From contig JBJKVO010000016.1 of the NCBI GenBank assembly GCA_045562555.1, forward strand, positions 48,474 to 112,473: DNA of 64,000 bases. The letters are read 5' to 3'. Made by a program: the position numbers and the translations under genes. Shown piece after piece: positions 30,069 to 30,614 of the stretch (positions within the stretch are counted from its first letter, which is position 1; each line of letters begins with the position of its first letter). The notes below the pieces were generated by a model, which saw only the letters and a list, made by a program, of their open reading frames with translations, was not told the origin of the DNA and searched no databases. The DNA is from Dehalococcoidia bacterium. GTDB lineage: Bacteria; Chloroflexota; Dehalococcoidia; Lucifugimonadales; UBA3495.

Positions 30069-30614
30069 TTAATAACCTACTGTCAAGGTTCTGATTATTA
30101 TAGGAGCTAGCTCTTCGGCTCTCGCTCTTAAAGTTTCCCTGTCCAGATTTCCGATGGGATGTTGGGTAAATATTGTAGGATAGTTATCGGCTCCCCAGAG
30201 CTTGGCCATTGCGGCTGCGGTTTGGACAAACCTGTCAGTGCAAATCGTAGCGGAAGGGACGCCTTGTTTCTCTGAATGTATTCCGTCGTGCACACTGCAC
30301 GCGCTACAGGATCCTCAATCCCCGATTGCTATTATGATTGCATCTGTAGCTTTAGCTAATTCTTCTAGTTCAGCCGGGTCAGCAGGTTTGGATGCGCTGG
30401 GCTTCTTAAGCCAGGAGATGCTATTTACTTCGTATTTTTCGGTAAGCACTGCAGCGATTTCCTCCAGAAGCACATCAGCATTTCTTTTACTGTCATCTAT
30501 CAAACCTATATTAGCACCGGCGATTGTAGGTATTCTAGGGGCTCCTTCGAAAGCAGGTACTATAGCTTCTGTTGTGGGGTCTACCAATGTGAAAGTTTCT
30601 TTTACGTTGACCAT
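30069..30614 (-). CDS. Predicted selenoprotein, UGSC-type (in-frame TGA at 30317-30315 read as selenocysteine); 181 codons
   Basis: Track ORFs 30315-30614 and 30069-30293 share strand and frame. Only a TGA plus 7 sense codons separate them. Read-through gives ...DAIIIAIGD-U-GSCSACSVHDGIH.... AAGGAG RBS before the ATG at 30614, and none before the second ORF, whose 'M' is an internal GTG. Confidence 0.72.
30287..30301 (-). promoter_or_regulatory. Candidate bacterial SECIS apical hairpin
   Basis: The mRNA sequence CGUGCA-GUG-UGCACG (6-bp stem; the G/U-containing loop can open to AGUGU) begins 14 nt after the UGA. A possible closing helix is GUAGCG (30307-30302) with CGCUAC (30252-30247). Confidence 0.35.

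Follow-up and report, generated by a model that had tools for sequence, protein, structure and literature searches.

The window, i.e. the whole 64-kb stretch of DNA analysed here, has a G+C content of 42.5% and is bacterial, because an Rfam scan places a class A RNase P RNA at 40586-40969. On its minus strand the open reading frames 30315-30614 and 30069-30293 lie in a common frame, which runs from an ATG at 30614 to a TAA at 30071-30069 and whose sole interruption is a TGA at 30317-30315 (Table 1). This TGA is followed by seven sense codons (GGA TCC TGT AGC GCG TGC AGT) and then by a GTG. The sequence AAGGAG is found four bases 5' of the ATG and directly 3' of the TAG (30627-30625) of the upstream gene, and no Shine-Dalgarno-like sequence precedes the internal GTG (30293-30291). 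Read-through of the TGA gives 99 amino acids, one selenocysteine (Sec, U) and 81 further amino acids, in total 181 residues with the sequence ...KATDAIIIAIGD-U-GSCSACSVHDGIHSEKQG...; the stretch that spans Sec reads ...AIIIAIGD-U-GSCSACSVHDGIHSEK or, in short form, ...AIGD-U-GSCSACSVHDG.... The initial annotation had described the two frames in these terms, with a ribosome binding site before the first of them alone, and had read them as one selenocysteine gene of 181 codons; the coordinates, the AAGGAG and the continuous translation are confirmed.

Table 1. Features of the UGSC locus and of the genes upstream of it, in window coordinates.
Feature	Position	Strand	Evidence
UGSC-family selenoprotein gene (very probable), complete, 181 codons including Sec, and TAA	30069..30614	-	Translation; NF041046 155.2 bits, PF24696 190.6 bits
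Shine-Dalgarno sequence AAGGAG	30619..30624	-	Direct sequence reading
In-frame UGA, very probably Sec, residue 100	30315..30317	-	TGA in 87/87 loci; Cys in 131/134 full-length representatives
Codons of the U-G-S-C (UxxC) motif, predicted to be redox-active	30306..30317	-	Family column counts; synonymous variation at +1 to +4
Putative bacterial SECIS hairpin	30284..30303	-	Fold; synonymous entropy; pairing; occurrence in distant loci
356-aa partner gene	30625..31695	-	Adjacency in 86/87 Dehalococcoidia loci; fusions
NHL-repeat beta-propeller gene	31695..32642	-	
GMC-type FAD oxidoreductase gene	32670..34265	-	
Thiolase gene	34280..35485	-	

The gene is the last of a run on the same strand that extends upstream over 31695-35485, and a promoter-like site (35544-35516) lies ahead of this thiolase-to-UGSC run. 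On the other side, a gene for a 59-aa Trm112-like zinc-ribbon protein (29889-30068, plus strand) is convergent with the UGSC gene, so that the two stop codons abut, and is a conserved neighbour in 80 related loci; its product scores 88.5 bits against the archaeal-type model NF038101 (cut-off 77), though the genome is bacterial. Elsewhere in the window a pyrimidine biosynthesis cluster (5290-12439 and 16268-17221) encodes aspartate carbamoyltransferase, a dihydroorotase-like amidohydrolase and the small and large chains of carbamoyl-phosphate synthase, with the OMP decarboxylase on the opposite strand. A 972-aa ORF (19632-22550, plus strand) matches BPD_transp_2, the family of branched-chain amino-acid permeases, twice. 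It has the appearance of a fused LivH/LivM-type permease, and the gene of a periplasmic binding protein (18256-19539) adjoins it. A 375-aa ORF (45211-46338, plus strand) that has no Pfam match at E <= 1e-5 immediately follows an amidase gene (43728-45197). Finally, two tandem paralogs of approximately 300 aa with NAD_binding_2 and DUF1932 domains (54328-55236 and 55309-56223, minus strand) are located beside an MFS transporter gene.

Profile searches, for which U was written as C in the read-through protein, place the product in a curated family. It reaches 155.2 bits with NCBIfam NF041046 ("UGSC family (seleno)protein"; curated cut-off 125), the NCBI model named in the initial annotation, and 190.6 bits with Pfam PF24696 ("UGSC"; cut-off 25), where the match extends over residues 10-178, thus both halves of the protein. 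GD-U-GSC of the window protein falls at the family's conserved column after G-D, and the length of 181 aa is within the range of the full-length Cys forms (175-195 aa), many representatives of which are actinobacterial proteins with the NCBI name "UGSC family (seleno)protein". A search of 5.8 billion predicted proteins retrieved 252 relatives, whose hosts are SAR202, Dehalococcoidia, Chloroflexota and Entotheonella. Nearly all of these predictions comprise 99-100 residues and end at one column (G-D or G-S). Therefore, gene callers systematically truncate UGSC proteins at the UGA codon, in keeping with the earlier expectation that this gene would be missed or split, and public gene callers predict a 99-aa and a 73-aa product. 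Taken together with the comparative data below, 30069-30614 on the minus strand is very probably a single UGSC-family selenoprotein gene of a SAR202-type Dehalococcoidia bacterium, and the window should carry one 181-residue selenoprotein instead of two split calls.

A scan of genomes, one per species, found 292 relatives of the gene. The best 80 of the 292 were fetched, all of them Dehalococcoidia or Chloroflexota MAGs, and were combined with seven metagenomic loci into a set of 87 loci (L001-L087) from different Dehalococcoidia species. TGA occupies the Sec column in 87/87 loci, with TAA, TAG or a sense codon in 0/87, and TGA is present in Entotheonella too. In an alignment of the wider family with 134 full-length representatives, the UGA column holds Cys in 131. 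Thus, inspection of homologs for Cys or TGA at this position, a check proposed with the original reading of the locus, found both and bore that reading out. As a separate observation, the Asp codon 5' of the Sec UGA (30318-30320, minus strand) is GAT in 82/82 distinct sequences, compared with GAC 44 times and GAT 39 times at another invariant Asp, a sign that the nucleotide context on the 5' side of the UGA may be constrained.

RNA folding places a hairpin at 30303-30284, which overlaps the codons for (S)ACSVHD(G). The stem consists of 8 bp, formed by 30303-30296 with 30292-30287 and 30285-30284, in which the A at 30286 is bulged, and its loop is GUG (30295-30293). In UGA-relative numbering the pairs are C15-G34, G16-C33 and, after the bulged A32, C17-G31 through A22-U26, the loop is G23-U24-G25, and 19 nt lie between the UGA and the loop. 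A 6-bp hairpin with a G/U loop had already been noted at 30301-30287 as a SECIS candidate; it is present and extends to the 8 bp described here. With its first nucleotide 20 nt after the UGA, the loop falls inside the UGA-to-loop range of the bSECISearch model, 16-37 nt. Among 83 distinct sequences, the synonymous entropy of codons +5 to +10 (GCG TGC AGT GTG CAC GAC) is 0.40 of 9.58 bits, versus 4.99 of 8.17 bits for codons +1 to +4, and later codons are similarly free. The pairing is kept as well: in 49 distinct 42-nt sequences, 392/392 cells of the stem are standard pairs, and apart from C-G to U-G in 15 sequences and G-C to G-U in 2, the sole variant is G-C to A-U in locus L010. This last change is compensatory, and the covariation support consists of this single event. 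An identical hairpin string was found in Entotheonella (L088) and at two further distant loci, with protein identities of approximately 48-53%. In the Cys-form locus L090 the hairpin is absent and a different peptide, CGSCSAATLADG, is encoded at this place. In folding energy, the region 3' of the UGA does not surpass shuffled sequence (z = 0.82 and -0.56); genome comparison, and not energy, therefore carries the argument for the hairpin. Rfam scans of the window at the gathering threshold and, permissively, of 30200-30400 found no SECIS-type family. Part of the nucleotide invariance could also reflect selection on the peptide ACSVHD. Nevertheless, frozen synonymous sites and kept pairing lend comparative support to the earlier proposal, and the hairpin is best described as a putative bacterial SECIS under RNA-level selection.

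ARAGORN detected no tRNA-Sec in the 64-kb window, where only a tRNA-Ala was seen, or in the fetched flanks of L001-L087, and Pfam searches of 37 window ORFs (seven and 30 further long ORFs) found no SelA, SelB or SelD. The absence of Sec machinery from a 64-kb window is uninformative, and we therefore infer Sec decoding in the source genome from its relatives. The BSepDB paper, whose analysis was restricted to genomes that encode two or more of SelA, SelB and SelD, reports 49 selenoproteins for "Dehalococcoidia bacterium UBA1141" and 46 for isolate 10f4566d-..., which are among the richest bacteria in this respect (PMC13326102). L068 and L071 are the genomes listed with 49 and 46 selenoproteins, respectively; in each of them the orthologous gene contains the TGA and the same hairpin. 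Within the window itself, a scan of other TGA-interrupted ORFs revealed no further credible selenoprotein candidate.

Alternatively, the UGA might be read without Sec machinery, either by a near-cognate or suppressor tRNA that inserts Cys, Trp or Arg, or after reassignment of the codon in this lineage. The lack of visible Sec machinery in the window would fit this explanation, as would one metagenomic variant that has CGA (Arg) at the Sec column and an intact hairpin. However, TGA ends 11 of the 53 long ORFs in the window, and UGA is thus not reassigned in this genome. Moreover, the apparent RNA-level selection on a hairpin at SelB-type spacing, which is missing in the Cys form, the published use of Sec by relatives with the orthologous gene (46-49 selenoproteins) and the status of UGSC as a curated selenoprotein family make read-through of another kind improbable. 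The variant in question (L095, 356-934; P0001, also P0003) reads GAC CGA AGC (D-R-S) and departs from the usual GAT TGA GGN (D-U-G), whereas the SECIS hairpin string is unchanged. P0001 stems from a single 1.8-kb contig, and the variant could mean that Sec was lost recently, or be an artefact of assembly.

More improbable still is that the TGA is a real stop and that the locus encodes two small proteins (99 aa, and approximately 74 aa from the GTG at 30293) or is a decaying split pseudogene. TGA does serve as an ordinary stop in this genome, and the 99-aa and 73-aa products predicted by public gene callers would correspond to this view. A mere stop is difficult to reconcile with a column that is always TGA and never TAA or TAG in 87 loci, and with the seven codons from the TGA to the GTG, which are conserved as protein and synonymously variable. 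Across the loci the amino acids of linker codons +1 to +4 (G, S, C, S) are invariant, yet the numbers of codons in use for them are 4, 6, 2 and 2, and Ser switches between TCN and AGY. The linker is thus constrained as protein ahead of any possible internal start and is therefore translated. The GTG at which a second protein would have to begin sits in the hairpin loop and lacks a Shine-Dalgarno sequence. Downstream of the TGA, the comparison of 70 codons in 80 loci revealed no in-frame stops or frameshifts and 2432 synonymous versus 1218 non-synonymous codon differences, third codon positions account for 62% of the nucleotide differences from the window, and the constraint is stronger than in the upstream half of the gene. 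To judge from these counts, the 70 codons after the TGA are under purifying selection. A lack of conservation behind the TGA, or homologs that exist as separate genes, had been named in advance as findings that would speak against one gene; what is found is the opposite, as the Cys homologs and the fusion proteins described below are single chains with Cys at the column. A sequencing or assembly error for TGC or TGT (Cys), for which a single-base difference would suffice, has a negligible probability and is refuted, since TGA recurs in 87 assemblies independent of one another, in 49 distinct 42-nt contexts, and also in a metagenomic copy 99% identical to the window gene.

If the locus is a selenoprotein gene, as we consider very probable, the UGA at 30317-30315 would be recoded to Sec. 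By analogy with the standard bacterial pathway, SelB with Sec-tRNA(Sec) would bind the putative hairpin 30303-30284 and insert Sec at the UGA. The predicted product has a mass of approximately 19 kDa, and its Sec would lie at the N-terminal end of a helix and be followed, three residues on, by a conserved Cys (U-G-S-C). The family columns define this centre further: among the 134 representatives, C occurs 131 times at position 0, G 127 times at +1, S 101 times at +2 and C 127 times at +3. A third Cys at +6 is found in 32/134 representatives, where W (37), A (22) and S (19) also occur. The centre conserved in the aligned sequences is accordingly [U/C]-G-S-C, i.e. UxxC, and not UxxCxxC. The UxxCxxC centre of the initial annotation is present in the window protein and in all Sec forms, where the TGC codon of the third Cys lies inside the putative SECIS stem.

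The fold was modelled with AlphaFold2 on a Cys-form homolog (P0012) that is 42% identical to the window protein. In the model (pLDDT 91.8) strands and helices alternate, and strand 92-98 leads straight into the Cys/Sec position, which is located where helix 101-116 begins. The closest PDB structures, with TM values of 0.4-0.5, are those of flavodoxin domains, TIR domains and RecJ, and a flavodoxin-like alpha/beta fold is predicted for UGSC. A thioredoxin fold is not supported, since the 50 highest-ranking PDB hits of the model include no protein of that fold. PDB sequence searches with the UGSC protein and the UGSC profile gave nothing meaningful. In the model, the Sec-Cys spacing at the helix start implies thiol/selenol redox chemistry. 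The placement of Sec/Cys at the helix N-terminus, together with the motif, suggests that U100 and C103 may cycle through a selenenylsulfide.

The gene directly upstream, which encodes a 356-aa protein and ends 10 nt before the UGSC start, is a conserved neighbour. This partner gene directly precedes UGSC in 86/87 Dehalococcoidia loci, and the NHL-repeat gene recurs upstream in 79/87. The partner is also found upstream of UGSC in L093 and in Entotheonella, there amid kynurenine-pathway genes. In L090, the actinobacterial locus of the Cys form, UGSC comes first, and its stop codon overlaps the start codon of the partner. The adjacency of the two genes spans three phyla. Locus L090 also encodes a 622-aa protein (18-1886, plus strand), whose gene overlaps the UGSC start and which, by eye, resembles a duplicated family III CoA-transferase. 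In eight representatives (541-657 residues) the two proteins are fused, with UGSC at the N-terminus and the partner domain, matched at E-values of 1e-31 to 1e-65, at the C-terminus. The partner and UGSC are probably co-translated in one operon. At least 7988 homologs of the partner exist, and the motifs GWTDGLPVVPPT, AANAVMAGC and RANATIGR are kept across distant copies; its sole invariant Cys is C83, in the MAGC of AANAVMAGC. Sequence searches of Pfam, NCBIfam and the PDB found no match for the partner. Its AlphaFold2 model is of moderate quality (pLDDT 68, pTM 0.73), and a Foldseek comparison of this model with the PDB returned nothing significant (best E-value 0.12). UGSC and the 356-aa partner, we infer, most likely make up a unit of two proteins in which UGSC is the redox-active one. 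Leads to the function of the UGSC family are this conserved and occasionally fused partner, the flavodoxin-like model and a faint similarity to GrdB/PrdB that recurs in the family.

A relation to the selenoprotein B family (GrdB/GrdF/GrdH) had been suggested on the basis of the motif. The comparison models for GrdB/GrdF/GrdH/PrdB were TIGR01917, TIGR01918, TIGR04483 and NF040794. The window protein scores 18.8 bits against TIGR01917 (GrdB), far below the cut-off of 602.2, and the Pfam search, for which GRDB had been named as a target, returned no family besides UGSC at a meaningful E-value for any UGSC member. Membership thus did not stand, but a weak similarity recurs: among 58 UGSC members, mostly Cys forms, sub-threshold matches were obtained to GrdB (19), PrdB (14), TIGR01918 (7) and GrdF (3), and the weak GrdB matches cover the Sec region of GrdB (profile positions 331-398). 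This hints at a distant homology of the UGSC Sec region to GrdB/PrdB, short of membership. With GrdB and PrdB the window protein shares Sec in a UxxC context, the motif listed for PrdB (PMC2398784); the window protein also has UxxCxxC. UGSC is also encoded beside a larger second protein, in loose analogy to PrdA or GrdE. It differs by its size (181 aa compared with 431 profile positions in TIGR01917), by the third Cys of UxxCxxC, which is not conserved across the UGSC family, and by a 356-aa partner without any Pfam or NCBIfam match. Families of the Grd/Prd or thioredoxin systems are absent from the 37 window ORFs scanned. The glycine and proline reductases might serve as a model in which the partner would be the substrate-binding subunit. 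That UGSC and its partner form an uncharacterised two-subunit selenoenzyme, with UGSC as a distant free-standing relative of the GrdB/PrdB Sec domain and a substrate-binding partner, is a speculative and on balance unlikely proposal. If true, such an enzyme could act in the organic-matter metabolism of SAR202.

Sec-Cys pairs of this kind are also known from selenoproteins with a thioredoxin fold and CxxU or UxxC motifs (Trx-like, Prx-like, SelW-like and AhpD-like), in which Sec likewise lies three residues from Cys at a helix start. The difference is in the fold, as the model of the UGSC homolog is closest to flavodoxin-type, TIR and RecJ structures. The hairpin resembles bacterial SECIS elements of the fdhF type and the bSECISearch consensus in being a stem-loop within the coding sequence just 3' of the UGA whose apical loop contains G and U. 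It differs in that it is short (8 bp and a 3-nt loop), does not exceed shuffled sequence in stability and matches no curated RNA family.

The closest known system is UGSC itself. The family, in the literature from 2007-2008 on, was reported by Zhang and Gladyshev as a "UGSC-containing protein", a selenoprotein whose function was not known (PMC1976440). In the Global Ocean Sampling (GOS) data UGSC is among the most abundant selenoprotein families, with 255 Sec forms and 21 Cys forms, and was listed with the motif UxxC, a "likely Trx-like" fold and a fusion to a domain termed "Unknown_1" (PMC2398784). The 356-aa partner may be this "Unknown_1" of 2008. UGSC selenoproteins with UAG-encoded Sec occur in Geodermatophilaceae (PMC5330540), and reviews of 2022 and 2026 list UGSC as NF041046 with its function still uncharacterised. 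A literature search on SAR202 and selenocysteine returned nothing specific. The window gene shares the D-U-G-S-C motif, the length and the UGA at the Sec/Cys column with the family of ABI76733.1 from Hyphomonas neptunium, and its host, which belongs to an aquatic or marine uncultured lineage, fits the abundance that the GOS data show for UGSC (PMC2398784). The window gene and the known family do not differ in kind. As UGSC is already described and curated, the window gene is an ordinary member of a known family and the finding is not new. Little is added biologically, given a family long described and modelled by NCBI and Pfam, and related Dehalococcoidia that are already listed as rich in selenoproteins. 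What these sequence comparisons and models would add to the published descriptions of UGSC is a Dehalococcoidia/SAR202 host, a putative SECIS stem that encodes the third Cys and a predicted flavodoxin-like fold.
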